IMG/VR virus record: IMGVR_UViG_3300032524_000070
Length of the DNA stretch: 64,000 nucleotides
Origin: a virus
Reading direction: 5' to 3' (one strand)
Positions within the stretch are counted from its first letter, which is position 1; every line of letters starts with the position of its first letter. The translations under genes were made by a program, and so were the position numbers. This document shows positions 18,063 to 41,462 of the stretch, one piece after another. Under the pieces are notes generated by a model. It was not told the DNA's origin and ran no database searches. It worked only from the letters and a program-made list of their open reading frames with translations.

Positions 18063-18263
18063 ATGCCCCAGTACAGCGAGCAGATGAAGCGACAGCGGCA
18101 ACAGGTCAAGATGGGCCTGGCGTTGCAGTACGCCGATGCTCCCCTTCGAGCAAAGAAGGGCACCTTCATCTTCGACATGAAGGACGCGGAGACGGGCGAG
18201 CAGCTCGCCTACTTTGAGAAGGACACCGAGAACCAGTCCAAGGAGCACGTTCGGGATGCGTAA
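18063..18263 (+). CDS. orphaned N-terminal fragment of the tail protein gene at 18936 (66 aa)
   Basis: GGAGGAG RBS; KGTFIFDMKDAETGEQLA matches KGEFFFKMTDARSGRVLA of the 18936 ORF at 10/18 positions; its stop overlaps the endonuclease start. Confidence 0.65.
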   Translation: MPQYSEQMKRQRQQVKMGLALQYADAPLRAKKGTFIFDMKDAETGEQLAYFEKDTENQSKEHVRDA

Positions 18264-19493: not shown

Positions 19494-19567
19494 TGCTGGC
19501 CCCCCACTCGCCACACCCCAACCCAGAGAGTAAGGTAGTTGACCAGAACTACTTGAAGGGGGTTGGT

Positions 19568-20515
19568 ATGCCTGGTGTGGTCAAGTGCCGGGTCTGCGGC
19601 ATCGAGCGACGACGGCTGGGGGCTCACATCAAGGCGTCCCACGGGATGACAGTGCCCGAGTACCAGTTGCAGTTTCCCGATGCAGCCGTGGAGGTCATCG
19701 GTAGTCGTGTGCGGTCTGCGGAATGTCGGGCCAAGCAGGCGACGGCTGCCAAGCGGCGGTGGGCTGACCCAGATGAGCGGGCTGCACAATCGGCTCGACT
19801 CAAAGATGCGGCCCCGTGGAAGGGCAAGAATCTCTCAGAGAGCCACAAGGCGGCGATCTCGGTGGGTGGATCTGGTGTCGCACATGACCTCACGGACGAG
19901 CGGCGAGCAGAACTAGCCGCCCGAGGTCGGCGGCTTCTGGTCAACAGCCGACAGCACCCGGACTATCGGCAGAAGCTCTCCGAGGGGCAAAGGCGGCGGC
20001 ATGAGCGGGAGATCTGCGGTCTTGCGGACCCTGCCAATCAGCGCAAGAGCTACAACACCAGACTCAAGAACGGCACGCTCATCCCTCCCGGTGGGGGTCG
20101 CGGTATCACGGGCTTCCGCAAGGGTCTGTCGCACTACTGCCGAAGCACACTGGAGGCGAACTTCGCCCGCATCCTCGTTCACGAGAGGGTGCCCTACGAG
20201 TATGAGCCGAGGGTATTCATGCTGCCTGGTGGGGGCCGGTGGACACCGGATTTCCGGCTGCTCGCACCTCTCGGGGGTATCCCTGCTGGCTGGGTGGAAA
20301 TGAAGGGCTGGCGACAGAAGGATGGCACCTTGCCGGGTGAAGCCTCTGCCAAGATCGCCGCCTTTGAGCAGATGACGGGGGAGGCTGTGTACGTCCTGGT
20401 GCAGAGCAGCCCTGAGTGGAAGGCCCTCACTGCGAAGTACGCTGGGCTGGTTCCGTGGGAGAGGCCCCGTTTCAACCTCAAGACTCATCCGGCCCTGTTC
20501 GGGAGGAAAGCCTGA
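19568..20515 (+). CDS. free-standing homing-type endonuclease (C2H2 Zn finger, NUMOD3-like, PD-(D/E)xK)
   Basis: CRVC...HIKASH, PWKGKNLSESHK, RSTLEANFARIL, YEYEP, WTPDF, VEMKGW; start taken at ATG 19568 after GAAGGGGG. Confidence 0.8.
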   Translation: MPGVVKCRVCGIERRRLGAHIKASHGMTVPEYQLQFPDAAVEVIGSRVRSAECRAKQATAAKRRWADPDERAAQSARLKDAAPWKGKNLSESHKAAISVGGSGVAHDLTDERRAELAARGRRLLVNSRQHPDYRQKLSEGQRRRHEREICGLADPANQRKSYNTRLKNGTLIPPGGGRGITGFRKGLSHYCRSTLEANFARILVHERVPYEYEPRVFMLPGGGRWTPDFRLLAPLGGIPAGWVEMKGWRQKDGTLPGEASAKIAAFEQMTGEAVYVLVQSSPEWKALTAKYAGLVPWERPRFNLKTHPALFGRKA

Positions 20516-23500
20516 TGGCGGTCAAGGACCACACCAACCACTTCGACGCGCTTGAGTCGGCCCCTACCCCGGCCGACTTGCGAGTGCCGAACACCGTGTC
20601 CCGCTCGCCGGGGACTGGTGAGCGTGCCTTCATTGGTGTCGTCGCTGAGTCCGGCAAGCCGGTCCTCGACGCAGAGCTGAACCTGCACCAGAACGCTCAG
20701 TGGATGGAGGACTACCTCCTTCGTCGCTGGCAGACCCCTTCGGGCTGGCTCCGGGGGCGCACACACCTCGATGCCTACTGCGACTGGAGCCTGGAGACGG
20801 CTCCTGCTGGCGTCACCGACGATTCTGGCCTCGTAGACCCCGGTGGCTCCGCAGGTTCGGCGGGCTCTGGTGGCTCTGGTGGCTCTGGTGGATCAGCGGG
20901 TGGTGGTGGCCCCCTCATCGCCGACGACGGGACGCTCCTGGACTCCGTGATTCTTCCGAGGCTCGAAGCCACGGTGGCCGGGCATCCGGTGGTGGTCGAG
21001 TACACGAACACGAAGACGCCGGGCTACAACCTCATCGGCCTGACACCCGCGAAGATCTACGACGGCACGAACGCGACGGTGAAGCGCACCGACATGATCT
21101 TCCTGGAGGTCTGGCGGTCACTGGTGGCCCCCTCGCCCTTCGCCACGGGTCAGATCCAGATCGTTGCCTTCGCTTCCCTGATCGCTGGTGACCTTGTTCG
21201 CATCAACGGCATCGCCCTGACGGCTGTGGCGGGGGCTCCGGGCCTCAACCAGTTCCAGATCGGTGCGAGCAACGACATCACGGCCACGAACATCGCCACG
21301 GCGATCAACCTGGTCGCCAACTCGTTCGACCTCATCGTGACGGCCCGTCCGACGACCAACGTGGTCCTCCTGACGGCTGACCTGCCCGGAGCTGGCGATG
21401 TCATCAGCCAGACGGGCAACTTCATCACCCTGTCCGTAACGGTCGCCACCGTGGGGGCTATGGTCGTCTCCGGGGCCACGCTGGTCGGGGGTGCTGACCG
21501 CCCGAACAAGCCGAGCAGCGAGCAGGACAAGATCTACCGGCACGGCAACGTGCTGTCCCCCAGCCCCGTCTGGCTCGACGACGAGATGGTCGATCCCATC
21601 ATCGCGGTCGAGAGCAGCCAGCGCATCCAGCTCCACTACCGCATCCGCACGACGAGCGACGCCGAGGCCCTCAACTACAAGAAGCACCCGGACGGCTTCT
21701 CGAACCTCATCGCAGGTGGTGGCCCGAACGACGCGGCCATCTTCGCGCAGGGCAACCGTGCCGTCCCGGTGTGGGCTGGCAACGGCGTGGACACCGTGTC
21801 CTACCCCTTCGTCCCCGCCGACAAGACGAGCACATGGCTCCAGTCCTCTGCCGTGTCCTTCGGCTGGGAAGACGACGGCCTGTACGTCGCGGGTGACGGG
21901 TCGGCAACCTCCGCAGCGAACCTCGGGGCCATCGACGGTTTCGTGTTCGCCATCCCCATCGCGTTCGTTCACCGGCACAACAACGTCAGCGACATGCTGG
22001 CGGGCTTCAAGGGCTTCGACCCGGAGAGCAACGCCAACGGTGCCCCGATGTACGCCCACACCGGCTACGTCGGCCCGCTGGGCAACATCCCGGCTGGTGA
22101 CTCCGACCGCCCGGACGGCGAGTTCGCCAACGTCATCACGCAGCAGAACATCCTGGACCTCCGCAGGCACGTCGTCTTCCCCGGAGTGGACCTCGCGGCA
22201 GAGCTGAAGTACCAGGTCCAGAGCCTCATGGATGGCAACCTGCGAACCTGGTCGGTGGACACCGCCAGCAAGCAGACCCTCGGTGGTGACTCCGGGGATG
22301 CCTCGACCCGTTACCTCATCTGCAACGAGGTCGGTCGCACGGAGTCCGAAGGTGCGACGCCCCCTCTGGCGGGTGAGAACACCGAGCGGGGCGAGCTGAT
22401 CCGCAGCTACGACCACATCTGCCGGAGGTTTGCTGACCAGCCCATCGTGGAACGGGTCGTCGTCGCCTTCTGGCCGGGTGACCGCAACGGAGCCCCCGTG
22501 GCTCCGGGTACGGACAACCCCGGCAAGTACATCAGCCCCAAGGCTGGTGGTGGCACGATGACGGCCCTCTGGTACGAGGGCGACACGCTCAACCTCGACC
22601 TGGAGTTCCTCAACTCCACGACCCTCGGCGGCATGTTCGACAGCCGCCCGGGTGCGGGCACGGGTGGCGGCGGCTCCGGCACGGGCATCCCGGACCAGAA
22701 CTTCCTTCAGTTCGCTCCGGCGGGCACGGTCATCACCGATGTCCTCAACGCCTGGCACGACGACGGCCACTACGACCAGGTGACCAACCAGAACGTGCAG
22801 CTCGGCATCATCAAGGGCCTGGGCACGACGCACCTCCAGGTCACCATCGACGCCAACGACACGGTGACCACAGAGGGGCAGCCCATCGCCGGACCGAACA
22901 TCGAGCACAAGATGGTCGGCTCGGACGTGGCTGGTGCTCCCCCGGTGGCTCCTGCGAACTTCGGTTCGCCTCGACGCATCTTCCTGGAGGTCGAGATCAC
23001 CTACCCCATCGGGGTGGGGACGACCGACACCCCGGACCACGAGGTCATCCCGGACCTGGGCGTCTACACGGACAGCGTGCTGACGGTCACTGGCCCCGGC
23101 CCGCTCATCGAGAACGACGTGCTCCAGCGGCCCGCCGACTTCGAGAACCTGCTGGCAGCCCGCTACCGCAGTGGCTTCCGCGAGGTGCAGTCGGAGTACG
23201 TGGCGAACGACACCATCAACCACGCGGCTCCTCTGGCTGGAACGGCCATCGGGGTGGCGACGGTCGAGCAGATCGTCTCGCTGGACCGCAGCACCTTGCG
23301 GTTCCCCCGCCGGGTGTGGAGCAACGACAATGGAACCGGGCTGTACGTCAACGACGTACCCGGAGCGGCAGTCCAGACGGTCGATGTCCCCAACTCGGAG
23401 CTGGGTTCTTCCAGCCGCCTCATCCAGCTCGCCGGGGGCGGGGGCATTCCCCTCTCGGGAGTGGGTCACACGCTCTGCGACATCCGGTACTTCGCACAGG

Positions 23501-24276
23501 ACCCGATCCCGAACTACGGGGTCAACGGCGGCGGCTACCAGATTGCCTACTACTTCCGCTCCAACTCGCCGCAGACGGCGGGCACCAAGGAGGGCGACAT
23601 CACCTCCACGGGCGACGGCACCTTGCCGACGACCTTGGTAGTGGAGCCTCTGCTCGCCAGCCCTAGCGTCTGGACCGGGCAGGTCGGGATGGGTGGTCAC
23701 GAGCTGGCCTTCCCCTACGAGTCGCCTCTGGACCAGATCCCCATCAACGATGGGACGACGGTTCCGGCGGGCTCGCAGCAGATCAGCGGGACGACGGAGG
23801 AGTGGTACTTCGCAGCGACGGCAGAGGTCGCGCTCGACCACTTCGACGCGGATACCGGGTTGCTCAACCTGCACGCCTTCGTGCAGCAGGACATCCAGAA
23901 CGACCAGGAGTTCGGCGGACCGGACAACGACAAGAAGCCCCGGAAGGATGCGGAGTTCAGGGCCTACTACCCGTTCGCGGATGACGAGTCCTACCGCCCC
24001 ACCGTGTTCGCGCAGCCCTTGTTCGGGGCGACGCGGCACAAGTCGTTCACCCCGTTCCTGGCAAGGGCGACGGCTGACGTGCCCGGAGTCGCTGGTGGGC
24101 TCCTGTTCCGCAAGTCGGAGCTGCTGCTCATCGTCCTCTCGCGGTTCGCTGAGCTGGACGACGAGAACAACGTGCGGTTCATCGACCCGCAGAGCAGCAA
24201 CAGGACGCTGGCGGCGGTCTACCGGACCCGCAACCTTCTTCTGACCGTGGGAGATCGCACATGCCTCGGAAGCTGA
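20515..24276 (+). CDS. large baseplate/tail protein, DUF6519/DUF4815-like N-terminus; paralog of 35214
   Basis: VSRS...ESGKPVLDAELN...PSGWL, RTDMIFLEVW, RIQLHYRIR, AIDGFVFAIPI, RPDG...ILDLRR, all shared with the 35214 ORF. Confidence 0.65.
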   Translation: MAVKDHTNHFDALESAPTPADLRVPNTVSRSPGTGERAFIGVVAESGKPVLDAELNLHQNAQWMEDYLLRRWQTPSGWLRGRTHLDAYCDWSLETAPAGVTDDSGLVDPGGSAGSAGSGGSGGSGGSAGGGGPLIADDGTLLDSVILPRLEATVAGHPVVVEYTNTKTPGYNLIGLTPAKIYDGTNATVKRTDMIFLEVWRSLVAPSPFATGQIQIVAFASLIAGDLVRINGIALTAVAGAPGLNQFQIGASNDITATNIATAINLVANSFDLIVTARPTTNVVLLTADLPGAGDVISQTGNFITLSVTVATVGAMVVSGATLVGGADRPNKPSSEQDKIYRHGNVLSPSPVWLDDEMVDPIIAVESSQRIQLHYRIRTTSDAEALNYKKHPDGFSNLIAGGGPNDAAIFAQGNRAVPVWAGNGVDTVSYPFVPADKTSTWLQSSAVSFGWEDDGLYVAGDGSATSAANLGAIDGFVFAIPIAFVHRHNNVSDMLAGFKGFDPESNANGAPMYAHTGYVGPLGNIPAGDSDRPDGEFANVITQQNILDLRRHVVFPGVDLAAELKYQVQSLMDGNLRTWSVDTASKQTLGGDSGDASTRYLICNEVGRTESEGATPPLAGENTERGELIRSYDHICRRFADQPIVERVVVAFWPGDRNGAPVAPGTDNPGKYISPKAGGGTMTALWYEGDTLNLDLEFLNSTTLGGMFDSRPGAGTGGGGSGTGIPDQNFLQFAPAGTVITDVLNAWHDDGHYDQVTNQNVQLGIIKGLGTTHLQVTIDANDTVTTEGQPIAGPNIEHKMVGSDVAGAPPVAPANFGSPRRIFLEVEITYPIGVGTTDTPDHEVIPDLGVYTDSVLTVTGPGPLIENDVLQRPADFENLLAARYRSGFREVQSEYVANDTINHAAPLAGTAIGVATVEQIVSLDRSTLRFPRRVWSNDNGTGLYVNDVPGAAVQTVDVPNSELGSSSRLIQLAGGGGIPLSGVGHTLCDIRYFAQDPIPNYGVNGGGYQIAYYFRSNSPQTAGTKEGDITSTGDGTLPTTLVVEPLLASPSVWTGQVGMGGHELAFPYESPLDQIPINDGTTVPAGSQQISGTTEEWYFAATAEVALDHFDADTGLLNLHAFVQQDIQNDQEFGGPDNDKKPRKDAEFRAYYPFADDESYRPTVFAQPLFGATRHKSFTPFLARATADVPGVAGGLLFRKSELLLIVLSRFAELDDENNVRFIDPQSSNRTLAAVYRTRNLLLTVGDRTCLGS

Positions 24277-28004: not shown

Positions 28005-31000
28005 ATGGCTGATTACCCACTGACGAAGCTGGAGAAGGCGCTCGCCCGCCGGGCGTCGTCGTCAGCGTCGAAGCCCGCATGGCAAGAGCTGATGGAGCGG
28101 TACGACACCGTGCCGTCATCCAAGTCGGTCCAGGCCCCCGATGCCATCACGGGCTTCAGCGGCTCGTGGGCCGCCAGCTACGACCTGGGTGGCTCGCTGC
28201 GGGACATGACGGTCGGGGAGAGCCCCGCGCAGATCCAGCGACGCACGAACTTGCTGGGCCAGCCCGGCATGGGCGAGATCAACTTCCGCCCCTACGACCA
28301 CGGCACCAACCGGCACGGCAAGTACGGCCCCAGCCTCCTCGGCCACCCCATCTCCTTCCAGGTGGTCGGCCCGACCGCGAAGACCCGTGGGCTGGTCCAC
28401 CAGTGGTTCATCACCGAGGCGGGCAACGTCGATACGTTGAACCTCGACGTGGGCGCGGACATCAACTCGAAGTCCATCACTCCGAGCCCCCTCCCGGCGG
28501 GTGCGGACACCATCGGGGAGATCTACGGCTTCACGGCGATCCCGGAGGGTGGGCTCTACATCGTCGTCACGATGACGGGCTCTGAGGGCGTCGTCACCGA
28601 CAACGGTGCGTTTGCCCCCGGCACGGATGGTGGGCTCGGCGATGGGTTCATCGGTGAGGACGATGGGGGTGCCCCCATCGGAGCGGGTGCCCGTCTGGCG
28701 GTCATCCCCCGCACGGAGTCGGTGAAGTACGAGATCTTCCGCGTCACGGCCATGACGCCGACGACTCTGGTGCTCGACAACGCCAAGCGGCTGTCCACCT
28801 ACTTCGACTACAACATCGGAGCGAACGCCCCGGTCATCCGGGCCATCACCATCATCCGGCCCGCAGCGACGCGACTGGTGGCGGTCCCCGGTTCCGGCAG
28901 CGTGCAGGGGGGCGAGCAGACGTTCGCCTTCGTGCCCCCGGTGACGGCCCTCAACGCGGACTGGCAGCCCGTCTACGCATCGGCCACTGGCACAGGTCTC
29001 TTTGACCCGTGGACCAGTGCCAAGAACCTGGACACGAACCCCGCGTGGGGCTTCGCAGCCGACGCCAAGGACTACGGCCAGGCGGTCGTGCTCCCGATTC
29101 CGGCCCCCGTCAACCGAGGACAGGGACGGCTCCAGGGCATCAACGGGGAGGCCCCACAGCAGCTCCCACTCGGTCGTTTCCGTCTCATCCTGGATGCGGC
29201 GAGCTACTTCGGCAGCACGCTCGACATCGGCAAGATCATCCGCATCTATGACATCCGGCGAGTGCTGGATGGTGACTGGGAGACCATCGCGTCCGCTCCG
29301 GCGACCCATCGGGGTCGGCCCCTCCTGGATCGGATGCTCGGCTACTTCGAGATCTTCAACACAGGCAACGCCGATCAGGGCGTCGGGGCGAACAACTTCT
29401 ACGACCTGAAGTTCGTCTCGCAGGTTGATCCCGACACGGGCGTCCCCTTCTTCGGTGCTGGCACGAACTTCGTGATGGCGACTGGCAGTGGAGCCGGACA
29501 GGAAGTCCGGTTCCAGTGGACGGTCCATGAGCCCATCTCGACTCTGTGGACTGACCGCTACCTGCACCCGACCCGGCTTGACTCAGCCCGGCTGAAGAAC
29601 CTCATCGACCCCCGCTGGGTCAAGCCGACCTTGAAGGGTCGGGAACTGACCGACATGGCCGGTCACCAGGCGATGCCTGACCGGGCCATCTTCGATACGA
29701 GTTCGAGCAGTGCTGGTGTTGCGGGCGGCAACGCGAATCCGGGCAACCTGCTGGACCTCGGTTTCCGGGTGGTCTTGTTCCCCGCCAAGGTCATCGGAGC
29801 CCCTACGACATCCCTGGTGCCGGACTTCGACAACCCCATCGACGCGAATGAGGTGGTCCTCGACCCGACGAAGCTGGATGAGAACCAGTTCATCGAGGTG
29901 GACTACTCCGCAGGGCTCGTTCACCTGTCCCACCCGCCCGTGGTGGGCAGCCAGCTCGTCCCGCTCGCAGGAATCCTGACGGCGGACGACAACCCCCGTG
30001 GCGAGGCCGTGTTCTTCGCTGCCTGCGTGCCCTTCAGCCGCGAGCCCGGCCAGATGGGCGTGAACCCTCGTCTGACGGCGGGACGAAGCCTTGACCGTGC
30101 GGGGAGCTTCTGTGGGCTGGACAGCCCGGAGCCCGTGGATGTCTACGGTGGTCGCATCTTCTGGCCGGGAGACAACCAGACGATCAACAGCGGGCCACAG
30201 CGCACCATCCAGTTGAACGTGGAGCTGGGTCCCATCGACCTGCCCTTGACGGGCTTCGTGGACGTGCTGATCGGGGATCACAACCCGGCGGGCGATCCCC
30301 TCTTCTCCAACTCCGATGAGGAACGGCTCTGCACCTTCGGCTACAGCACCGTCAACTACAACGACGTGGGCCACGGTGGTCGGACGACCCTGGAGGGGAC
30401 GTTCGGCGGTGGTGACCAGACGGGTCCGGCGAGCTACGTCGTCGTGCCTGCCACCACCCCGGTCACGGTGGTCCTCCGCAAGAACATCGTCCTGCCGAAC
30501 ACCCTGGACGGCCGCACTGGCACCGACTACCAGTTCGACACGACCTACGGCTACGCCAAGCGGCCTGCAACGCTGCGCTTCACGCATGGCGATCTGACCC
30601 CTGAGCACGACGGCTCGGTCAGCATCTCGACGAAGGACCCCCGCACGGACGCCCACGAGGCGCTCTTCAGCGAGCTGTTCTCGTCCTGGTGCATCAGCGG
30701 TGGCATCAACTCGACGGTTCTGCCGTCCGTTGGAGCGACGCTGCACTTCAGCGAGGCGGTCGTGCTCATCCAGGGCATCCGCACCGTCATGCCCGAGCAG
30801 GACTTGGTGCTCGGTGTGGTGGCTGGCCCTCCGGCGTCCCGGTACGTCTACATCGACGGCAGCACCCCGGCTTGCCCGGTCTGGGCCAGCACGACTGTAC
30901 TGCCCCTGCCCACCGACAACGACGTGCTCATGGCGTCGTACACGCACGCAGGCGGGAACATCCAGACGCTCATCGACCTCCGCGACCCGCTCGTGGACAT

Positions 31001-33605
31001 CGACAAGCGGCTGGAAGTCACGGTCGGCAACCCTTCGGGGCATGGCCAGCCGGGAGACGCGCACTTCAACGAGCTGGCCGATGCCGTCGCGTTCGTGACG
31101 GAGACCTACCGGGCCTTCCAGGTCTCGGGCGCACCGGGCGAAGAGGGTCGGGCTCGCCGCATCAAGGTCATCGGGCCGACGCGGGAGGACAACGCCAAGC
31201 TCCCCATCTCGCCAGCCGGTCTCAGTGGGGTCATCATCGAGGGTGCCGCCCGGACGCCGGACGACACCGCCGCGAACCCCCTGTCGATCACCTGGGAGGG
31301 GGCAGCGGCTCCCCCGCTGTTCGACCTCTCGGATGTATCTGGCTGGACGTTCCGGGATCTGGCCTTCCGCTTCGTGGACTCGGCGGCTTCGGCGGTGGTG
31401 CCGGAACGCTGCCTGTTCATCACGAGGGATGGCCCGACTCGGAACTGCATCTTCGAGAACATCTACCTTCTCGGGAAGGCCCACGGCTTCTACTACATCG
31501 ACGACACTGCCGTCCCTGGCAGTGCCGCCTACGACAACCTGCTGTTCCGCAACTGCGCTGCCACGGAGCTGACCGACTTCGCCATCCGGGTCGAGAACAA
31601 CATCGACGCGGCCAACGCCGACGTGATGAAGGTCGAGGGCTGCGACTTCACGGTGGCCAAGGGAGCTGGCCGCGAGCTGAACGGGACGATCACCGATGGT
31701 GGCATCGTCCACGTCGGGACGACCAACGCCGAGCGGACCAGCATCCGGGACAGCAGGCTCATTGGCGGCAACGTCGGCATGTTCTCTGCTGGTGTCGGCA
31801 ACGTCATCGACGGCTGCCTCATCCAGAACACCGACCTCCCGGCGATCTGGGCGAAGTCGGACTTCTGGGAGATCAACAACAACGACATCGTGGCCGCCCA
31901 CACCGTCAAGGGCACGTCCGGGCCGTTGAACCCCGCCAAGGTGGCCCTCTACATCGACGCGGGTGGTGCTGGACAGAACGAAGTCCACGTCATCAACAAC
32001 CGGGTCGATGTCAGCGGTGGTGCAGCGGGCGACCGGGCCATCTTCAGCGACGGCAACACCTTCAACTGCATCTTCTCCGGCAACAGCGTCGATTTCGACA
32101 TCATGGCTGCGACGGCAGTTCACATCCTCGACAACGACATCGCGGTAGGCGATCTGTCGTTCGATGCCAGTTGCACCGTCCGGGGCAACGCCGTGGTCGG
32201 AGACATGATCCCCCTGGGGACCCTGGCCAACATCTCCAACAACAACGTGGCCGGTCTGCTGCTGGGCATCCTTGGGACGAACTGCCGCTACAGCAACAAC
32301 AACTTCCTGAGCAGCACCGCCACCGACCATGTGGTCGCCAACGGGAGCAGCTTCAACGGCGACTGGTTCGGGGACCAGGCATCGGCTGGTGGTCGGGTCG
32401 AGCTGGCGAACGACTGCACCTTCATCGGGTGCCGCTTCTCTGATGCCGTGGATGGTGTGACGAAGTTGCCTTCCCGGAACCGTTTCGAGGCGTGCGTGTT
32501 CGATATGTACGCCACCGGCTTCCAGGTAAGGGGTGGCTCAAACTCCTTCCTTGGCAACGCCTTCAACGACCGGACGGCGGGTCCAGTCCTCAATCTTGAG
32601 ATCAACATCAAGGGTGAGGGGACGGTCTTCTCGGACAACAAGTGCTCCATCGGCACCTTGTCGCTGGAGCCCGAAGCGGGTGAGAACCAGCGGTTCGTGG
32701 TGACCGGCAACCAGTTCTTCGTCCCTGACATCAACGTGGGCGGCATGTGGATTCAGGGCGGCTACAGCGTGGTCAGCGACAACGTGGTGGTCGGCTGGGA
32801 GAGCGAGAGCGCCGACCCCGACAAGTTCTCCATCTTTGTCGAGGGGAACCAGAACGTCGTCAACGGCAATCTCTGTACCAAGAGCCTTCAGGTGAAGGGT
32901 GCCCAGTGTACGGCGGTGGGGAACCGGGTCTTGATCAACGCCGTCGTCGCGTTGACCGATGGCAAGTTCGACTCGAACCACGTCCAGGGCGATGTGCTCA
33001 TCGGTGGTGGGGCAGCGGCCAGCATCCAGTTCAACAGCAACCGGATCGCGGGCGACGTGGACTACCTGACGCCCGCGACCGACTCCCTGATCTCCAGTTC
33101 GTTCAACGACAACCGCATCGTCGGTACGACCACCCTGGCCGTAGCGGCTGGTGTGTCCATCGTGGACAGCACGATCTCGGGCAACAGGTTCGGCAACGAC
33201 TTCGCGGCCACCCAGAGCGACGACTGCACCTTCGTAGGGAACCGCTGCACCGGCAGCGTGAATCTCACCAACTCGGTGGGGCTGGTCTGCAACAACAACC
33301 GCATCGGCAAGGGTGGGGCGACGAAGAACCTCATCCTCACCACCTGTGCCGACTACATCTGCAACGGCAACTACGTCGAGGGCAGCATCCTGGTGGACGC
33401 CAACACTAGCGGGACAGGCGTGGGCATCCTGGTCGGCAACCGAGCGGCGGTCATCTCGTCGGACAACGCTCCGCTCGCAGGTCAGGTTGCTGTCGGCAAC
33501 CGGACGACCGTCAACGGGGTCACCCCGTCGCTCTTCAACACGAACACGGGCGTCGTCGCCGACATCGGCGTTACCGTGCCCTCGAACTTGAACACCGAGG
33601 TCTAG
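28005..33605 (+). CDS. tail spike-like protein with long C-terminal right-handed beta-helix
   Basis: C-terminal ~800 aa rich in Asn-ladder repeats (IxNN, FxGN, VxGNR); possible depolymerase or receptor-binding protein. Confidence 0.7.
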   Translation: MADYPLTKLEKALARRASSSASKPAWQELMERYDTVPSSKSVQAPDAITGFSGSWAASYDLGGSLRDMTVGESPAQIQRRTNLLGQPGMGEINFRPYDHGTNRHGKYGPSLLGHPISFQVVGPTAKTRGLVHQWFITEAGNVDTLNLDVGADINSKSITPSPLPAGADTIGEIYGFTAIPEGGLYIVVTMTGSEGVVTDNGAFAPGTDGGLGDGFIGEDDGGAPIGAGARLAVIPRTESVKYEIFRVTAMTPTTLVLDNAKRLSTYFDYNIGANAPVIRAITIIRPAATRLVAVPGSGSVQGGEQTFAFVPPVTALNADWQPVYASATGTGLFDPWTSAKNLDTNPAWGFAADAKDYGQAVVLPIPAPVNRGQGRLQGINGEAPQQLPLGRFRLILDAASYFGSTLDIGKIIRIYDIRRVLDGDWETIASAPATHRGRPLLDRMLGYFEIFNTGNADQGVGANNFYDLKFVSQVDPDTGVPFFGAGTNFVMATGSGAGQEVRFQWTVHEPISTLWTDRYLHPTRLDSARLKNLIDPRWVKPTLKGRELTDMAGHQAMPDRAIFDTSSSSAGVAGGNANPGNLLDLGFRVVLFPAKVIGAPTTSLVPDFDNPIDANEVVLDPTKLDENQFIEVDYSAGLVHLSHPPVVGSQLVPLAGILTADDNPRGEAVFFAACVPFSREPGQMGVNPRLTAGRSLDRAGSFCGLDSPEPVDVYGGRIFWPGDNQTINSGPQRTIQLNVELGPIDLPLTGFVDVLIGDHNPAGDPLFSNSDEERLCTFGYSTVNYNDVGHGGRTTLEGTFGGGDQTGPASYVVVPATTPVTVVLRKNIVLPNTLDGRTGTDYQFDTTYGYAKRPATLRFTHGDLTPEHDGSVSISTKDPRTDAHEALFSELFSSWCISGGINSTVLPSVGATLHFSEAVVLIQGIRTVMPEQDLVLGVVAGPPASRYVYIDGSTPACPVWASTTVLPLPTDNDVLMASYTHAGGNIQTLIDLRDPLVDIDKRLEVTVGNPSGHGQPGDAHFNELADAVAFVTETYRAFQVSGAPGEEGRARRIKVIGPTREDNAKLPISPAGLSGVIIEGAARTPDDTAANPLSITWEGAAAPPLFDLSDVSGWTFRDLAFRFVDSAASAVVPERCLFITRDGPTRNCIFENIYLLGKAHGFYYIDDTAVPGSAAYDNLLFRNCAATELTDFAIRVENNIDAANADVMKVEGCDFTVAKGAGRELNGTITDGGIVHVGTTNAERTSIRDSRLIGGNVGMFSAGVGNVIDGCLIQNTDLPAIWAKSDFWEINNNDIVAAHTVKGTSGPLNPAKVALYIDAGGAGQNEVHVINNRVDVSGGAAGDRAIFSDGNTFNCIFSGNSVDFDIMAATAVHILDNDIAVGDLSFDASCTVRGNAVVGDMIPLGTLANISNNNVAGLLLGILGTNCRYSNNNFLSSTATDHVVANGSSFNGDWFGDQASAGGRVELANDCTFIGCRFSDAVDGVTKLPSRNRFEACVFDMYATGFQVRGGSNSFLGNAFNDRTAGPVLNLEINIKGEGTVFSDNKCSIGTLSLEPEAGENQRFVVTGNQFFVPDINVGGMWIQGGYSVVSDNVVVGWESESADPDKFSIFVEGNQNVVNGNLCTKSLQVKGAQCTAVGNRVLINAVVALTDGKFDSNHVQGDVLIGGGAAASIQFNSNRIAGDVDYLTPATDSLISSSFNDNRIVGTTTLAVAAGVSIVDSTISGNRFGNDFAATQSDDCTFVGNRCTGSVNLTNSVGLVCNNNRIGKGGATKNLILTTCADYICNGNYVEGSILVDANTSGTGVGILVGNRAAVISSDNAPLAGQVAVGNRTTVNGVTPSLFNTNTGVVADIGVTVPSNLNTEV

Positions 33606-33609
33606 CCAG

Positions 33610-34443
33610 ATGAGAATCCTCGTTGACCTGCGAAGCCACCTGTCGGATGCACCGGAGATCATCCAGGTGCAGCGGGTTCCCGTGGAAGGCTCCGCTGGTG
33701 GCGAGACCATCAACGGGAAGTACGCCCTCCCGGTCCCGTTGAACATGGAGTTCCCCATCGACGGGACGAACTACATCCTCGACGGGGCGGGGAACATCGA
33801 CGGCGGCGACGTGGTGAGCATGGGCTACGCCCACCTCCTGGCTCTCTACCTGCCCTTCGAGAACATCTACTTCAACCCGCTGCTGACCAGCGACCATGTA
33901 GGCGAGCTGGTCCTCGACCAGTCCTTCCACTTCACCGACCGCAGCGTCTCGCCCCCCGTCCAGTTCTTCCCCCGGTTCCAGACGGGCCGCGAGGAGGGCG
34001 TCGCCGACGACGGTCAGATGCCCACGCACACGGCGATGATGCCCGCGAACGACACGGTGACCCCGGAGCGGCCAGGGCTCATCATCACGGAGCCCATTGA
34101 CATCGGGCCGTTCACGCTCGACTGCGACGACGTGCCAGTGGGTGCCGACGAGTTCATGGTCTTCTGGAAGCTCTACAACTTCACGGTCGGCCAGGATGTC
34201 GCGGCTGATGCAGGACTGCTGGCGGGCACGAACGCCCCGGCGGCACGGCTGCTGGAGGAGACGCCCCAGGAGCCGGACGACCTCTCGGTCTTCATCAGCA
34301 CCGACAATGGCGCGAACTGGTGTCAAGTCGGCCTGTTGGAGCCCATCGCCTTCTGCGACAAGACGACATCGGTGCGACTGGCGTTCATGAACGACTCGCT
34401 CACGAACAAGCTCTTCCTCGCCAGCTTCGCGCTGCTGTTCTGA
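33610..34443 (+). CDS. hypothetical structural protein
   Basis: 277 aa, co-oriented, high GC3; VFISTDNGANW Asp-box-like motif. Confidence 0.6.
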   Translation: MRILVDLRSHLSDAPEIIQVQRVPVEGSAGGETINGKYALPVPLNMEFPIDGTNYILDGAGNIDGGDVVSMGYAHLLALYLPFENIYFNPLLTSDHVGELVLDQSFHFTDRSVSPPVQFFPRFQTGREEGVADDGQMPTHTAMMPANDTVTPERPGLIITEPIDIGPFTLDCDDVPVGADEFMVFWKLYNFTVGQDVAADAGLLAGTNAPAARLLEETPQEPDDLSVFISTDNGANWCQVGLLEPIAFCDKTTSVRLAFMNDSLTNKLFLASFALLF

Positions 34444-34453
34444 AGGTAGGAAA

Positions 34454-35224
34454 ATGGCACTCGACCACGGACAACTACGCCGCATCTCCGCCGCCGCTGA
34501 CAAGCGGCGGTCGGTGGAGCGTCGTGCCGCCGTGGGTCGGATGAAGGAGAAGCCCTGTGCAGACTGCGAGACGGCCTATCCTTTCTTCGTCATGGACTTC
34601 GACCACCGGGACCCGAGCACCAAGGATTTCACCATCAGCAGGGTGGTGACCCGGCTGGCATGGGACAAGCTCGTGGCCGAGATCGAGAAGTGCGATGTCG
34701 TATGCGTCAACTGCCACCGTTTGCGAACGTGGGCACCGCCCACGAACCGGTCGGCCCGGCAGCGACTTCTGATTGACCTCAAGGCGACCCCCTGTGCGGA
34801 TTGCAAGGGGGAGTTCCACTACTGCCAGATGGACTTCGACCACGTTCGGGGTGAAAAGCTCGGTCAGGTGCCCAAGAGGGGCACCGCACAGGCCATCAAG
34901 GCTGAGGCCGCCAAGTGCGATGTGGTCTGCGCGAATTGCCATCGAGTGCGTTCACAGGCCGCCGCCAAGGGGTCTGCCCGGTTGGTTCCTGCGGACATCG
35001 ACATGGTGTGGAAGCAGCGCAGTAGCAAGACTCCGCAGACGAAGCTGCGGAAGACCACACGGCCTTGGCACAGCCTCGCCGGAATGATGCCGGATGGTGC
35101 TCTTGCAGCCCGCCACGGGATCACCCGGAACGCCATCAGGAACTACCGGAAAAAGATGAAGATCGAACCGTTCACACGCCAGGGCGTGCGACCCGATCTC
35201 AAGGAGGTGCGCTGTGGCGCTTGA
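34454..35224 (+). CDS. tandem double-HNH endonuclease with C-terminal HTH-like segment
   Basis: Two CADC...MDFDH...KCDVVCxNCHR units; C-terminal DGALAARHGITRNAIRNYRKK; begins with the host gene's MALDHG. Confidence 0.85.
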   Translation: MALDHGQLRRISAAADKRRSVERRAAVGRMKEKPCADCETAYPFFVMDFDHRDPSTKDFTISRVVTRLAWDKLVAEIEKCDVVCVNCHRLRTWAPPTNRSARQRLLIDLKATPCADCKGEFHYCQMDFDHVRGEKLGQVPKRGTAQAIKAEAAKCDVVCANCHRVRSQAAAKGSARLVPADIDMVWKQRSSKTPQTKLRKTTRPWHSLAGMMPDGALAARHGITRNAIRNYRKKMKIEPFTRQGVRPDLKEVRCGA

Positions 35225-38200
35225 TCATGGAACTGGCGTCTCTCGGACCTTGAGCCCTCTCGACAGGGCTTACGCTTCGGTCATCTGGCAGAAGGGCAAG
35301 CCGCCCCTCGACGCAGAGCTGAACCTCATGTCCTCGCTGGACCAGGAGCGGCTGCGGGAGTACGTCGCGGGCCTGATGCCCTCCGGGTTCTTGATGGACC
35401 CGACCCGCTCCGAGTTCGACTTCCGGTTCGACCCCAAGTGGGTCAACCACTTCCACCTCGGCGTGCCTCGGTCTGCCACGGGCAGCCTCGACGCAGACGA
35501 GACGCAGCCGGTCGTGTGGGCCAACGTCAACGGCTGGATGGTCCCGGTCGCTGGAACGGACATCACGGGCACGGCTGATGTCCACAACGTCGTCAAGCTC
35601 TACCCCGCCCCCGGCTCCGATACCCGCGTGGACTTCGTGTTCCTGGAGGTCTGGAACTCCCTGGTCCAGCCGAATCCCTCGACGCTGAACAAGCCCACGG
35701 CTTCGACCGTCTGGAAGTACGGCAACGTCAAGCACGGCGGCACGAACATCACGGACGACCTCGAAGATCCGACCATCGGCTTCGAGACCAGCAAGCGAGT
35801 ACAGGTCCAGTACCGCATCCGCGTCTACGGACAGGGCCTCGGCGGTGGGGCCAGCGTGAACCTCGCTGTCCACCCGGACGGCTTCGGTGACCCGAACATC
35901 CTCGGTCGGGGGGCCAACGCGAGTGCCCCCGTCGCCGGGATGCAGTGGGCCAACATGCGAGAGCAGCTCGGTGACCCCTCCCTGTGGCGAGCAGGCGACG
36001 GCGACCCGAACAACGCTCTGGGCACCATCGACGGCTACACCTACGCCATCCCGATCTGCGCGGTCTTCCGCCGGAGCCGGGAGACCTACGTCGCCATCAA
36101 GACCAGCGGCAACCCCACGCAGAACGGGGCGACCCTCCGCACGCCGGGCGTCTACCTGCTGGTCGATCCCCTGACGGGTGCCGTGCCCCTGCTCCAGGCG
36201 TCGCTCGGGGCGGCTCTGGGGCCGGACGACGGCAAGCTGGCCCCCTTCACCATCGCGGTCACGAACATCAACGGCTCCGGGCTGGAAGACACGGCCCACA
36301 CGCTGTCGAGCATCTACCTCCAGATCGAGGATGAGATCGTCGGCATCTCGGCGGTGGACCTGGTGGGCAACACCATCACCATCCCGGCAGGTGGCCGTGG
36401 GCGGTGGGGTACGGCTGCTGTGGGGCACGCGACGGCGACCCCCATCAACCAGTTCAACACCCGCCCGGACGGCCTGTACGCCGACCAGGTGGCCTCTCAG
36501 GACGTGCTGGACCTCCGCAGGGCGGTGAACCCGGGCGACTGGGACTACAACCGTCTGCTGGCCCACAACGTCGCAGCTCTGGCCAAGGGCACCCTCCGTA
36601 CCGCGTGGAAGGAGAGCAACCCCGGTGACACAGAGGGTCCGGTCGTCCATGAAGTCGTGGACATGTACGCCGGGGACGAGACGCACCCGAACCACACCGA
36701 CGCGGCGGACGGCTCTGATGGCATCCGCACGGTCTGGTCGGATGGGGCGACCATCCAGTCGGACGTGACGCTCCTCCTCAAGCACGACGCCACCCGCGAC
36801 GCGGACGGCATGGTCGGCTTCACGAACACCGGCTTCGATGCCCTGGTCGAGTGGGATGTGGGGGCGAGCTTCAACCCCATCGGTTTCTTGAACACGGGCG
36901 GCCTGGCGACGGGCTGGTACAACGGCTCGTCGGTCCACCTGTTCATCGGCGGGACCACGGGCGAGCTGGGTGCAAGGGCGACCTTCCGTGCCGCCAACGT
37001 GCGGGACGTGCGCTTCGTCACACCGGGCGAATACTGGAAGACGGGTTACCCGGTCGTGGACCCGACCACGGGCAACCAGCACCCGGTATCCCTCCGGTTC
37101 CTGGGCGAGAAGAGCACGGTGGCACCGCCGTCTGCTCTGGCCGCAGCCGACAAGCTCATCGCCCCCGGCCCGCAGTACCCGTGGCGGGAGGGGTCGTTCG
37201 AGCGACCCTTCATCGTGCTGGGTGGCCTGCTCCACAGCAACCTGCGGATCACTGCTCTCGATGTCAGCAACCTGACTTCGGCGGTCGATGTCTACGGCAC
37301 GACCCGCTACTACCTCGACCTGACGGGCAAGGGCTTCGACTTCGACGCGGCTGGTGGGTTCAACAACGCCAGCGGTGGCGTCTTCCCGAACGACCCCGCG
37401 CAGGTGGCGACTCCGTTCCTGCGGGGTGAGCGCACCTTCTTCGGGATGCTGACCGACGACGGTCGGGACCAGACGGGGGCCTCCTCTGAGGTCTACCTGA
37501 TGACCTTCGGTGACCCCACGGGCCGCAACAACAACGGTGCCTTCCGGGTCATCGGTGCCGGGACGGTGGGCTACACCAACGTCCCTGGCATCAACGCCGG
37601 GACGCTGGTGCTGGAGCCGCTTTCGGGGGACTTCACCGGCTGGTCGGCCACGGGCTCGGGCAACGAGATCACGGTCGATTTCCGGTCGCAGTACCACAAC
37701 GCGGACGACATCTCGACCTACGCAGCTCGCATCGCCGACCTGGCCATCGTGCTGACCGACATCGGTGGCGAGTCTGGTGACGGAACGCCGTGGGACCTGG
37801 CGAACGTCGGGACCAACGCTCTGGATCAGGCGGGCGGCTTCTACTACGCCCCGAGCAAGATGGTCCTCTCGACCACGCTGCTCTACCACCCCGGTCGGTC
37901 AGCGGCGACGCGAGTGCCGGACGAGTTCGTGCGGTTCGCCATGCGGGGCGGTTCGGAAGAAACGCTCGGGACGTACCTGCGACGGTCGCCGTCGAGCATC
38001 GACACGACCTTCTCGGCCATCGGGACGGCAACAGACGAGACGTACTGGCCGACCATCCACGTCGGCACGTGGAACAGGCTCTCCGGCCTCGGCTGGCACG
38101 CCCCCCTCGCACCGGCCTACGGCGGCTCCGTGGTGGGCTTCACAGAGCAGGACCGCGAAGCTGAGTGCTTCGTGGACCGTGGCAGCAAGACGGCCATCTT

Positions 38201-41200
38201 CCGTCCGTTCCGCAACCGGGACATGACGCTCCAGGCGTTGACCTGGCCGGACCCGGAGATCCCCGCAGGGAGCTGCCTGCTCGGCCCGTACCTGTACCCG
38301 GCCCCCGACTCGTCGGAGAAGGATGCTCTCCAGATCCTCACCGGCAACAACGGAGCCCCGCACGGCACGACGGGCAAGCGGATGGGCTTCATGGTCCCCC
38401 GCGAGTTCATGCCGCGCTTCGGGCGGCAGGACATCCCGTACCGCCAGCTCAACACGGGCACGGCCCCCACGGCTGCCGGGTTCATGCCGGGCATCAACCA
38501 CCTGTTCACCGATGTCACCGACCTGACCAACCCGGTGTTCAACATCATCGGTGGCGAGCGGAACGCCGGAGGTGCGGAGGTCAACTCCCTGTTCATGGTG
38601 ACGCGAGCCAGCGAGATCGTGTACGCCCACGGCAACAGCAGCTACGGCCCGAAGAACATCGGTGCCTACGGTGCTCGCAAGACGACCGACATCAACCCGG
38701 CTCTCGGGCCGAACTCCGCTGCCGTCGTCGCTGCGCTGCGGGCGGTCAACTCGTCGGACCTGGGCCGGGGGCTCAAGGGCATCCAGCTCCCGCCCTACAT
38801 GGGCATCGCCCGGCTGTACGGCGTCTACGAGCTGGCGGACTACACGGCCAAGGGTGGCACGGCCTTCAAGGTCAACCGCTACGAGATGGAAGCGGCTCCG
38901 GTGTCGATCAACCTCATCCGCGAGGATGCCGACCAGCAGACGCTCTTCATCCTCCAGGACGGTGCTCTGGACCTCACGGGTGCAGCGGGTGACCACACCT
39001 ACATCATCCCGTCGAACGTGCTCGACCTGGCTCGCATCCCGACCTTCGTGGCCGGGGACGCTTTCGAGGACTACGACTACGTGGTCGAGGCGACGGTCTT
39101 CTTCTTCGCTCGGGGCTTCATCAACGAGAACAACGTGGTCCTCGTGCGGAAGCGGGACGGCTCCTACGCCCTCAACACCGATGGGGACGATGCGGAGCTG
39201 GAGAACGTGCCGATGTGCATCCCGTCTCCGGCGGGCATCAACGACCGGCTCTACAACGCCTACAACCGCACCGTCTACCAGGGTGACCCCTACATGACGC
39301 GGGACGGCTCGACCCGGCAGGAGGCCGACTACGAGAACCGCTACGGGCGGCTCACCCCCGGCCAGGCGTGGCTCCTCCGCACGGCAGTCCAGCAGTTCGA
39401 CTCGGCGGGCAACTTCGTCCCGCAGATGGACAACGAGCGTGGCTTCGAGGTGCTCGCCTCGATGGACTTCTACACGACGCTCGGCACGGGCAAGGTCGGC
39501 GGGATGCTGTTCCCCGGCACCCCGCTCGACGTGGGGCACATCTCCGACACGCTGCTGGCCTCCAGCCGGATGCCGCTGACGGAGACGGCCAACGACTGGC
39601 GGATCGACGTGCGGGCCTTCACCGAAGGCCAGAAGATGAACCCCAGCCGGGCAGCGGCGTCGGTGGAGGTGTTGAGCAACCTCTCGATGCTCAACGCGGT
39701 CACCAACGACGACACCTTCTTCGTGCGGTTCATCCTGCTCGACGACAGCGTGGTGACCCTCTACGGCTCGACGGCGGCCTTCGTCGCCACCCTGACGGGT
39801 GGCCCGAACAACGTCCCGGCGGGCGACATCTTCGTCCTGGACGAGACGAGCAGCCACCGGGAGCTGACGGACCAGTTCAGCCCCATCGGGGTCCTCAACG
39901 ACGGGACTCTCTCGTCGGCGACGGTCGCCCTGGTGGGTGCCAAGGTCGGTGACGCGGTGACGGTCAACCCGGACGCGATGGTGAACGGGGCCTTGATCTA
40001 CGGCTTCGTCCCGGCTGCCGACCAGGTCACCATCGTCGTCCAGAACATCAACCCGGACATCCCGTTCACCTCCCTGAGTGATCACGACAGCATCAAGCCG
40101 ATCACCGTCACGGCGGCTGACCTCGGTGGTGTTGCAGTCCCGGCAAACGACAGCACGGCAACCGCCGAGGCATTCGTCGGGGCGGCAGTCGGGGATGCCG
40201 TGGTCGTGAACCCCCCGGCGGGTCTGGCAGCGGGTCTGATCGTCACGGCAGACACGGTGACGGTGGCCGACCAGGTGACCCTCCGCGTCCACAACGTCAC
40301 GGCGGCTCCCATCGCGTGGGGTGCTGACCGGGTGCTCGACGTGGCCGTGCTGAAGGACCATCCCCAGGGCTCCATCGACATGAGCCTCGTCAACTTCGAC
40401 GTGCGGGTCAGCCAGACGGTGGGGACGGAAGACGGGACCGCTGACAACCTCGTGGCCGTCATCAACGCCAACACCAAGCTGTTCCGCTCGGTCACGGCCT
40501 TCAACGACGGAACCCCCAAGGTCCAGATCGCAGCGGTCCCGACCGGAGCCGAGGGCAACGGCATCCGGGTCCAGGTCGGCAAGGTGTCCTGGGGTGCCAC
40601 GGTCGGAACGGCACCACTGCTGGTGCAGCAGACCCTCCAGATCGCTGTCCCGCACGACAACATGGTGGTCACCCCCCACGTCACCTCCAGTTTCTTGCTG
40701 GGTGGCCTCGACGTGCCGGTGAACGCGGGCATCGGGACGAGCCAGATGGCTCTGACCGGCATGACGGAGCGGCTGCCTCTCGGGGTGCTCGTCCAGGACA
40801 GCGACTTCCTGTGCGAGAATCCCCTCGGTGACGCGGCTTCGGCCATGAACTCCAGCCCGGCTCCGCTGCGGCCCATCCAGACGCTCATGCCGCTCATCGG
40901 CGGCGAGGAGTACAGCCGATTCATGGGTGCTCCCGGAGAGCTGCTGGCCCTGGCCGACGTGCAGATCGCCCCGAACTCCTGGGCGGCCTGGACCGACACG
41001 GCACCGGACGGTGCGACCCGGAAGTTCCGCATCTACCGGGGCGGTGGTGCTGCCTACGTGCTCTCCGGGGACAACCCCGGCGGCCCCATCGACTGGGTGA
41101 GCGAGAGCTTCCCGAAGTCGGCACAGCCGGTGCTCAAGGGCGGCGTGCTGGCCTGCAAGGCGATGCTCGTCCGCAACTACTACGAGGAGGCGTTCGCTGG

Positions 41201-41462
41201 TGGGAGCCTCGCAGCCCCGAGCCAGGGCGACGAGATCCAGATGGTCATCCTGACCCACGCCCACCTCGGCGATGGGCTGACGGTGCTCAACGGTGTGACC
41301 CTCGACGGCATCATCTCCCCCAGCGGGTACGGCGAGGGCTACTCGGCAGCCGACCGCTACCGCTGCATGGGGCGGCCGATGTTCCGTGGGTACAGTCGCG
41401 TGATCCCCGATCCGGTCACCGTCACGCTGGCGGTGTACCCGGAGAACCAGCGGGGAACCTGA
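35214..41462 (+). CDS. very large baseplate/tail protein (2082 aa), paralog of 20515
   Basis: QKGKPPLDAELN, RVDFVFLEVW, RVQVQYRIR, TIDGYTYAIPI; GTG start after perfect AAGGAGGT at 35201-35208. Confidence 0.7.
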   Translation: MALDHGTGVSRTLSPLDRAYASVIWQKGKPPLDAELNLMSSLDQERLREYVAGLMPSGFLMDPTRSEFDFRFDPKWVNHFHLGVPRSATGSLDADETQPVVWANVNGWMVPVAGTDITGTADVHNVVKLYPAPGSDTRVDFVFLEVWNSLVQPNPSTLNKPTASTVWKYGNVKHGGTNITDDLEDPTIGFETSKRVQVQYRIRVYGQGLGGGASVNLAVHPDGFGDPNILGRGANASAPVAGMQWANMREQLGDPSLWRAGDGDPNNALGTIDGYTYAIPICAVFRRSRETYVAIKTSGNPTQNGATLRTPGVYLLVDPLTGAVPLLQASLGAALGPDDGKLAPFTIAVTNINGSGLEDTAHTLSSIYLQIEDEIVGISAVDLVGNTITIPAGGRGRWGTAAVGHATATPINQFNTRPDGLYADQVASQDVLDLRRAVNPGDWDYNRLLAHNVAALAKGTLRTAWKESNPGDTEGPVVHEVVDMYAGDETHPNHTDAADGSDGIRTVWSDGATIQSDVTLLLKHDATRDADGMVGFTNTGFDALVEWDVGASFNPIGFLNTGGLATGWYNGSSVHLFIGGTTGELGARATFRAANVRDVRFVTPGEYWKTGYPVVDPTTGNQHPVSLRFLGEKSTVAPPSALAAADKLIAPGPQYPWREGSFERPFIVLGGLLHSNLRITALDVSNLTSAVDVYGTTRYYLDLTGKGFDFDAAGGFNNASGGVFPNDPAQVATPFLRGERTFFGMLTDDGRDQTGASSEVYLMTFGDPTGRNNNGAFRVIGAGTVGYTNVPGINAGTLVLEPLSGDFTGWSATGSGNEITVDFRSQYHNADDISTYAARIADLAIVLTDIGGESGDGTPWDLANVGTNALDQAGGFYYAPSKMVLSTTLLYHPGRSAATRVPDEFVRFAMRGGSEETLGTYLRRSPSSIDTTFSAIGTATDETYWPTIHVGTWNRLSGLGWHAPLAPAYGGSVVGFTEQDREAECFVDRGSKTAIFRPFRNRDMTLQALTWPDPEIPAGSCLLGPYLYPAPDSSEKDALQILTGNNGAPHGTTGKRMGFMVPREFMPRFGRQDIPYRQLNTGTAPTAAGFMPGINHLFTDVTDLTNPVFNIIGGERNAGGAEVNSLFMVTRASEIVYAHGNSSYGPKNIGAYGARKTTDINPALGPNSAAVVAALRAVNSSDLGRGLKGIQLPPYMGIARLYGVYELADYTAKGGTAFKVNRYEMEAAPVSINLIREDADQQTLFILQDGALDLTGAAGDHTYIIPSNVLDLARIPTFVAGDAFEDYDYVVEATVFFFARGFINENNVVLVRKRDGSYALNTDGDDAELENVPMCIPSPAGINDRLYNAYNRTVYQGDPYMTRDGSTRQEADYENRYGRLTPGQAWLLRTAVQQFDSAGNFVPQMDNERGFEVLASMDFYTTLGTGKVGGMLFPGTPLDVGHISDTLLASSRMPLTETANDWRIDVRAFTEGQKMNPSRAAASVEVLSNLSMLNAVTNDDTFFVRFILLDDSVVTLYGSTAAFVATLTGGPNNVPAGDIFVLDETSSHRELTDQFSPIGVLNDGTLSSATVALVGAKVGDAVTVNPDAMVNGALIYGFVPAADQVTIVVQNINPDIPFTSLSDHDSIKPITVTAADLGGVAVPANDSTATAEAFVGAAVGDAVVVNPPAGLAAGLIVTADTVTVADQVTLRVHNVTAAPIAWGADRVLDVAVLKDHPQGSIDMSLVNFDVRVSQTVGTEDGTADNLVAVINANTKLFRSVTAFNDGTPKVQIAAVPTGAEGNGIRVQVGKVSWGATVGTAPLLVQQTLQIAVPHDNMVVTPHVTSSFLLGGLDVPVNAGIGTSQMALTGMTERLPLGVLVQDSDFLCENPLGDAASAMNSSPAPLRPIQTLMPLIGGEEYSRFMGAPGELLALADVQIAPNSWAAWTDTAPDGATRKFRIYRGGGAAYVLSGDNPGGPIDWVSESFPKSAQPVLKGGVLACKAMLVRNYYEEAFAGGSLAAPSQGDEIQMVILTHAHLGDGLTVLNGVTLDGIISPSGYGEGYSAADRYRCMGRPMFRGYSRVIPDPVTVTLAVYPENQRGT

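Follow-up and report, generated by a model that had tools for sequence, protein, structure and literature searches.

How can a homing endonuclease gene (HEG) occupy the first codons of another gene and leave that gene whole? The usual view is that homing endonucleases can invade coding sequences safely only by way of introns or inteins and otherwise lie between genes. The question is raised by a locus in a 64,000-nt stretch of viral DNA (IMG/VR record IMGVR_UViG_3300032524_000070; hereafter the window), where an open reading frame (ORF) for a predicted HNH endonuclease and the very large gene directly downstream (hereafter the big gene) begin with the same six amino acids in different codons. 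We consider it very probable that a free-standing HEG inserted after codon 6 of the big gene. The host ribosome-binding site, ATG and first six codons would now translate the nuclease, and the element would supply a Shine-Dalgarno sequence, a GTG start and a recoded copy of the first codons that restores the full host ORF. The nuclease would cut alleles lacking the HNH gene and spread by break repair, with the carrier immune to cleavage.

Captured and restored starts at the HNH locus

The HNH ORF (256 aa, 34454-35224, plus strand) opens with the codons ATGGCACTCGACCACGGA, and the big gene (2082 aa, 35214-41462, plus strand) opens with GTGGCGCTTGATCATGGA; both encode MALDHG. This duplication had been recognised in a sequence-only reading of the DNA, which reported an identical peptide with five of six codons changed and a Shine-Dalgarno sequence inside the 3' end of the HNH gene; both are confirmed here. 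All five codon differences are silent transitions, comprising the start (ATG in the HNH ORF, GTG in the big gene) and four third positions. The shared peptide is not due to chance, because five matching residues after Met have a probability of ~1.4e-6 per pair of genes, and p is ~2e-4 for five random substitutions in codons 2-7 to leave the peptide unaltered. We refer to the first spelling (34454-34471) as the L copy and to the second, extended through codon 7 of the big gene (35214-35234), as the R copy. The Shine-Dalgarno sequence, AAGGAGGT (35201-35208, plus strand), is strong and lies 5 nt 5' of the big-gene GTG. The two ORFs overlap by 11 nt in different frames, with the HNH stop codon TGA (35222-35224) inside big-gene codons 3-4, and translation of the two genes may be coupled.

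A close relative of the window is a 141.7-kb viral contig (L003/L004, present again as L035; related contigs are given as L numbers) that has no HNH gene. Protein identity between L004 and the window is 91% for the upstream gene and 98% for the big gene. In L004 the stop codon of the upstream gene is followed by 13 nt and then by the big gene, whereas the same gap in the window is 773 nt. The first 18 nt of the L004 big gene are those of the window's HNH ORF, and they continue directly into TGVSRTL. Thus the window carries a 760-nt insert after codon 6 (34472-35231, plus strand, defined by alignments with L004 and L005 on both sides), with a junction that is ambiguous within a shared GGA. Without the insert, the L copy would continue in frame into codon 7. 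The sequence-only reading had proposed that the element inserted at this point and that the HNH gene uses the native ribosome-binding site and start. It had predicted HNH-free relatives in which the gene beginning at 33610 is followed by the ATG-start 18-mer running into TGVSRTL. Such an allele was found exactly in L004/L035 and with 0-1 differences in L039 and L005, which supports the proposed insertion.

Empty alleles at the site were identified in L004, L039, L005, L037, L038 and L006. The L copy, which represents the native big-gene start and codons 2-6 and now forms the first six HNH codons, matches L004 and L039 at 18/18 nt and L005 at 17/18 nt. The native ribosome-binding spacer of the big gene (34444-34453, plus strand), now serving the HNH ORF, is identical in L004, where it lies 5' of the big-gene ATG. 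To the left of the junction 67 nt are identical between the window and L004 (background 85%), and to the right nt 22-78 of the big gene (57 nt) are identical (background 94%).

In contrast to these flanks, the R copy differs from L004 at 6/21 nt, all of them synonymous transitions. Six of the first seven big-gene codons are changed, and of the 1459 seven-codon windows in the gene no other exceeds five; the two big genes differ at 5.75% overall. The dense tract ends at codon 7 (ACT in the window, ACC in L004). The suggestion that several further A/T-ending codons belong to it holds for this ACT. It fails for TCT and CCT, which are the same in the empty L004, and for later GCT codons, which fit the overall difference; these codons were rejected as part of the recoded tract. 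In this region the carrier differs from L004 only by the six substitutions and the insert.

The R copy of the window matches that of L022, a more distant HNH-bearing relative, at 17/18 nt, and the stretch from the Shine-Dalgarno sequence into the R copy matches at 33/34 nt, even though the L022 big gene is only ~73% identical in nucleotide sequence to that of the window. Because of these matches, the R copy can be seen to travel with the HNH gene; judged by these alignments, it is part of the element. All seven HNH-bearing lineages have a GAGG core at a distance of 5-7 nt upstream of the big-gene start. In four of these lineages the big gene starts with GTG instead of ATG, which occurs in none of the empty alleles examined.

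Phylogenetic analysis shows that the element has spread horizontally. The host tree, built on the big gene, joins the window to L004 (100/100), and the five other members of the clade around this pair are empty; the HNH-bearing L024 is sister to that whole clade (100/100), and L022 falls outside. In the HNH tree, by contrast, the partner of the window is L022 (98/98), with L024 excluded from the pair, and the nearest HNH homolog (P0004, 77% identity) occupies the same place in L022. Because the two trees conflict and the window is nested among empty alleles, the HNH gene was probably gained recently in the window lineage, by homing into an L004-like genome. The element shows two hallmarks of a HEG, namely presence/absence polymorphism at a single site and a tree that conflicts with that of its host gene.

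The HNH ORF matches the PHROG HNH families phrog_3106 (E 3.9e-44) and phrog_2255 (E 1.1e-40), each over two stretches. In an alignment of 44 homologs the motif CxxC...DFDH...CxxCH is invariant in both HNH modules (module 1, ~34556-34726; module 2, ~34793-34951; plus strand), and an Asn is nearly invariant in module 2 only. No Pfam family was found for the protein, a search of PDB sequences with the alignment profile returned nothing, and tblastn against the window revealed no paralog. An AlphaFold (AF2) model is of high confidence, with a pLDDT of 87.7. Residues 100-174 of the model give weak fold matches (Z 3.1-4.1) to the HNH nucleases Gme HNH, Cap5 and T4 endonuclease VII, and residues 199-238 (~35048-35167, plus strand) give weak matches to helix-turn-helix (HTH) DNA-binding domains (wide VIA search, Z 3-4). 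Foldseek against PDB returned no match at E <= 0.001. Since the VIA matches reach only Z 3-4 and there is no Foldseek match to PDB, the fold evidence is compatible with, rather than diagnostic of, HNH modules followed by an HTH. The nuclease gene is intact. We predict that the protein is a free-standing tandem-HNH homing endonuclease with a C-terminal HTH and that it is presumably active as a nuclease.

Both ends of this protein are tied to the host gene. There is no in-frame ATG, GTG or TTG between the first HNH codon and the invariant residue R18, so that the N-terminus depends on the captured ATG. The C-terminal tail (EV-R/P-C-G/V-A) is dictated by the overlapped Shine-Dalgarno sequence and big-gene start.

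A possible homing cycle and its alternatives

In the cycle that we envisage, the nuclease would cut HNH-free alleles close to the boundary between codons 6 and 7. The left break end would keep the first codons of the recipient and pair with the L copy of the donor, repair synthesis would run through the HNH gene and the R copy, and the right break end would anneal just past the R copy. Homing of this kind fits the window, where the sequence on either side resembles the recipient as far as the edges of the insert. The carrier that results should be immune: the insert would split the target at the L junction, and the changed codons would keep the duplication from recreating it at the R junction. 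Immunity would then be conferred by the recoding of the R copy.

Insertion and start capture could be real and the recoding still have nothing to do with immunity. It could stem from a donor polymorphism carried in a very short co-conversion tract, from the need for the TGA, and/or from selection against deletion between direct repeats. We regard this as an unlikely account, yet one with a serious claim, and several observations weigh in its favour and against a role in immunity. The CTT codon of the R copy supplies the T of the HNH stop codon, and the overlapped Shine-Dalgarno sequence and start set the C-terminal tail of the nuclease. The codons GAT, ACT and CTT occur naturally in the empty relatives L005 and L006. 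Reduced identity between the direct repeats would in itself stabilise the insert, and in the HNH-bearing L031 the R copy is barely recoded (two substitutions and a one-codon indel relative to its L copy). The homing reading as a whole is also weakened by the low scores of the fold matches to HNH nucleases (Z 3-4), by the distance of the nearest sampled HNH gene, which is only 77% identical, and by the fact that a recipient-derived L copy is not separable from a donor with the same L copy. On the other hand, six changed codons among the first seven form the densest run in the gene (1/1459 windows), and GTG replaces ATG in four HNH lineages and in no empty allele examined. A carrier must escape its own nuclease, and here only the substitutions and the insert distinguish it from L004. 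Beside a second nuclease gene in the same genome, 26 positions of a 60-nt tract are changed and the peptide is almost the same (see below). We favour a reading in which the recoding would confer immunity.

It is improbable that the HNH gene is instead an old, vertically inherited resident, with empty alleles produced by repeated loss and the L/R likeness left as a relic of one ancient duplication, in the absence of ongoing homing. Such inheritance would agree with an HNH divergence that roughly follows host divergence across lineages, and with the finding that the HNH homologs examined, down to ~48% identity, all lie at this one locus. It would, however, require several precise losses around the window, which is nested among six empty alleles, each loss restoring the L-type spelling; and it does not account for HNH and host trees that conflict with support of 98-100. 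In addition, the L copy is identical in nucleotide sequence to empty alleles, whereas the unconstrained N-terminus of an old HNH gene should have decayed, as it has in L030 and L027.

Removal of the 760-nt insert at the RNA or protein level, as an intein or as a group I/II intron whose HNH ORF is in frame, would let the big protein start at the L copy. We find this exceedingly improbable, although introns are known in phage structural genes (PMC3706429) and excision of 34472-35231 would leave an intact frame, as noted above. Searches for a group I/II ribozyme core flanking or overlapping the ORF gave no match to any Rfam family in 33500-36500 at E up to 1; the sequence-only reading had seen no space for an intron. 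The HNH ORF fills all but the last 7 nt of the 760. An intron would need no Shine-Dalgarno sequence, no start and no peptide-preserving R copy, yet several lineages have retained such a copy. Frame and stop codon rule out an intein: the 760 nt are not divisible by 3, and the HNH frame, which differs from that of the big gene, closes with TGA.

Recurrence at a hot spot for homing endonuclease genes

The arrangement is not confined to the window. All close HNH homologs occupy this junction between the upstream gene and the big gene, and they share 8-11 nt with the big-gene start. L022 has the same six-codon L/R duplication. In L024 eight codons and 1 nt are duplicated (MALDYGTG versus VSLDYGTG), and an internal ATG lies just after the duplication. 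L031 carries MGLDFG versus MLDFG, and L033 only a remnant (ATGCC-T). In L030 and L027 any L/R likeness is weak (9/18 nt in L030). By these comparisons, start capture is clearly recognisable in at least four lineages of this HNH subclade. The sequence-only reading would have been refuted by HNH homologs that begin with MALDHG at unrelated loci; all MALD[HY]G homologs were found at this same locus.

More distant HNH homologs (L044, L082 and L083; 38-48% identity) lie directly 5' of a big-gene homolog as well, with an N-terminal zinc-finger extension and a start of their own. Every more distant HNH homolog that was checked adjoins a big-gene homolog and has a different N-terminus. The start-capturing subclade probably arose from an ordinary intergenic free-standing HEG through loss of its own N-terminal extension. 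In such an event, a break a few codons downstream of the big-gene start would have left a recipient end that was fused in frame with a truncated nuclease ORF. The earlier description of the locus as splice-free invasion of a coding sequence fits the position of the insert, within coding sequence, but the layout is probably not the result of a fresh invasion, since distant members have their own start at the same site.

Most of the ~45 distinct relatives are empty at the junction between the upstream gene and the big gene. In others the same junction holds LAGLIDADG genes (PF14528; L007 3217-4011, L015 2985-3854, also as L066, and L067), a second HNH family (L016 ~3259-3999 and L043) or tandem HNHs with the zinc-finger extension (L044 1773-2498, L082 and L083 2501-3538). 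On this gene content the junction is a hot spot for HEGs, with at least four kinds in different relatives when the start-capturing tandem HNH is included. In the other HEGs at the site (LAGLIDADG in L007, L015 and L067; HNH in L016 and L043; zinc-finger HNH in L044, L082 and L083), no start capture was detected beyond a shared Met and one residue. Start capture is therefore specific to one HNH subclade.

The different nucleases at the junction nevertheless share a DNA-binding module. By hhalign, the C-terminal HTH of the window HNH is homologous to the C-terminus of the LAGLIDADG protein in L015 (probability 96.8%, E 2.4e-10) and, with lower scores, in L007 (80%, E 1.4e-5). The module, PWHxLxGxMxD...GIPxF, is common to HNH and LAGLIDADG genes at the site (window 35048-35167; L015 3696-3995; L007 ~3880-3990; L083). 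An additional 48-aa ORF in L015 (3855-4001) consists of a second HTH module and nothing else, and the HNH of L083 has two tandem copies.

We tentatively put forward a broader interpretation, which we would not yet call likely. The HNH subclade may have given up its own start for good, with its first codons supplied afresh by each host, so that recipient DNA up to the break becomes the N-terminus of the nuclease, while the invaded gene receives an immunised, re-spelled start from the cassette. Such an element would be a self-repairing invader of coding sequence at 5' ends that is widespread in large uncultured phages, and its target could be shared with the LAGLIDADG enzymes through an exchangeable HTH module.

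Known systems and other features of this genome

The closest published systems are homing elements that replace the end of a gene, in their case the 3' end. In fungal mitochondria, mORFs form gene hybrids in Allomyces macrogynus (atp6) and Glomus (atp6, atp9, cox2 and nad3) (PMC3630166). Like the element in the window, they place an endonuclease ORF in a protein-coding gene without an intron (PMC3630166) and bring a duplicate gene end that keeps the host ORF whole, leaving the native one behind as a relic that hardly differs from close relatives. In both cases the inserted copy is diverged in DNA and conserved in protein, and the endonuclease ORF may be in phase with the host gene. Unlike the window, mORFs replace the 3' (C-terminal) end, encode LAGLIDADG or GIY-YIG enzymes and reside in organelles, whereas an HNH gene has here entered the 5' end of a phage gene. 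A further difference is that translation of the window nuclease begins in the native piece, and the element has to supply a start codon together with a ribosome-binding site.

WHO elements home into FBA1 of Torulaspora and Lachancea yeasts and replace its 3' end at each integration without splicing (PMC7282813). Homing without splicing and the replacement of one end of the target gene are thus common to WHO elements and the window, and WHO cleavage is described there as allele-specific, as cleavage by the window nuclease would be with respect to the carrier allele. WHO elements differ in the use of the 3' end, an intein-derived nuclease and a eukaryotic nucleus, and they are not known to capture a host start, whereas the window element occupies the 5' end and has captured one. 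The signs by which mORFs and WHO elements are recognised are found here at the 5' end, with an L copy that is native (18/18 nt with L004), an R copy that is element-borne (17/18 nt with L022), and DNA that differs at 5/18 nt over a peptide identical at 6/6 residues.

The reference for intronless homing in phages is given by the free-standing Seg and Mob endonucleases of T-even phages (PMC2988022; PMC2790892). As in the window, their genes lie outside introns and inteins and are patchily distributed between conserved genes, and they spread by break repair with co-conversion of flanks, as we propose for the window element. Seg and Mob genes are, however, intergenic, have their own starts, and cleave away from the insertion site (PMC2988022), whereas the window ORF is fused to the first codons of its target and the data fit a cut at the insertion point. 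HEGs inside phage coding sequences include mobE, which splits Aeromonas phage Aeh1 nrdA into a gene in pieces (Friedrich et al. 2007, cited in PMC2988022), and the T4 mobA/gene 60 cassette (bioRxiv 10.1101/2022.08.31.505936). In those cases function is reported to be kept without splicing, as in the window, by means of two polypeptides or ribosomal bypass; in the window nothing is split, and a duplicated, re-spelled 5' end restores one full-length ORF. A literature search of incomplete coverage turned up no phage HEG reported to have captured the start at the 5' end of a gene.

The locus offers a well-controlled natural example of a third route into coding sequence, at the 5' end of a gene, since it combines conflicting trees with an empty allele and with carriers in several diverged lineages. 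The nuclease takes over the host translation signals and pays with a re-spelled replacement start. This raises the questions of which position such a nuclease attacks, whether synonymous changes are what shields the carrier, and how unrelated nuclease folds competing for one site come to share DNA-binding modules. For annotation, duplicated short N-termini and abrupt changes in codon use beside nuclease genes mark the borders of elements and may pass for mis-called starts.

The upstream gene (277 aa, P0003; 33610-34443, plus strand), which would act as the left homology arm, has a homolog directly 5' of the big gene in ~45 related contigs and matched no Pfam or PHROG family. The big gene, of structural type, matched no Pfam family; its homolog in Tunturiibacter phage Tunturi_5 (31% identity) is annotated as a tail fiber. 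Megablast of 33000-36500 against deposited phages gave no match, and the insert is not distinguished by GC content.

The L004 contig lacks all three nuclease genes of the window, and the other two also lie beside altered gene ends. A NUMOD3-bearing nuclease (18214-18939; PF07460), absent from L004, sits in the 5' part of a ~200-aa gene, within 18063-19040. The native first 54 codons of that gene are kept as a stub (18063-18224, 97% identical in nucleotide sequence to L004) that runs on into a short stretch of non-native sequence. The N-terminus that replaces it, shorter and diverged, begins at ~18935. The second nuclease (19475-20515, 346 aa, no Pfam hit) is likewise absent from L004. On its 5' side the last 20 codons of the preceding gene (19434-19493) differ from L004 at 26/60 nt, versus 2/60 just before, and the peptide is identical at 17/20 residues. 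Because of these two sites, replaced or re-spelled gene ends beside nuclease genes can be said to recur in this phage.

The stop codon of the second nuclease overlaps the ATG of the next giant gene (20515-24276). This gene and the big gene at 35214-41462 are paralogous over their N-terminal ~230 residues (BLASTP E 5e-10 and 1e-7; GKPxLDAELNL motif), and both have a nuclease gene directly upstream in the window. Two genes upstream of the HNH ORF, an 1866-aa gene (28005-33605) is ~44% identical to L004 over its last 400 aa. A sharp mosaic boundary thus lies ~900 nt to the left of the HNH insertion, where identity to L004 passes from ~44% to 91% in the next gene and 98% in the big gene.

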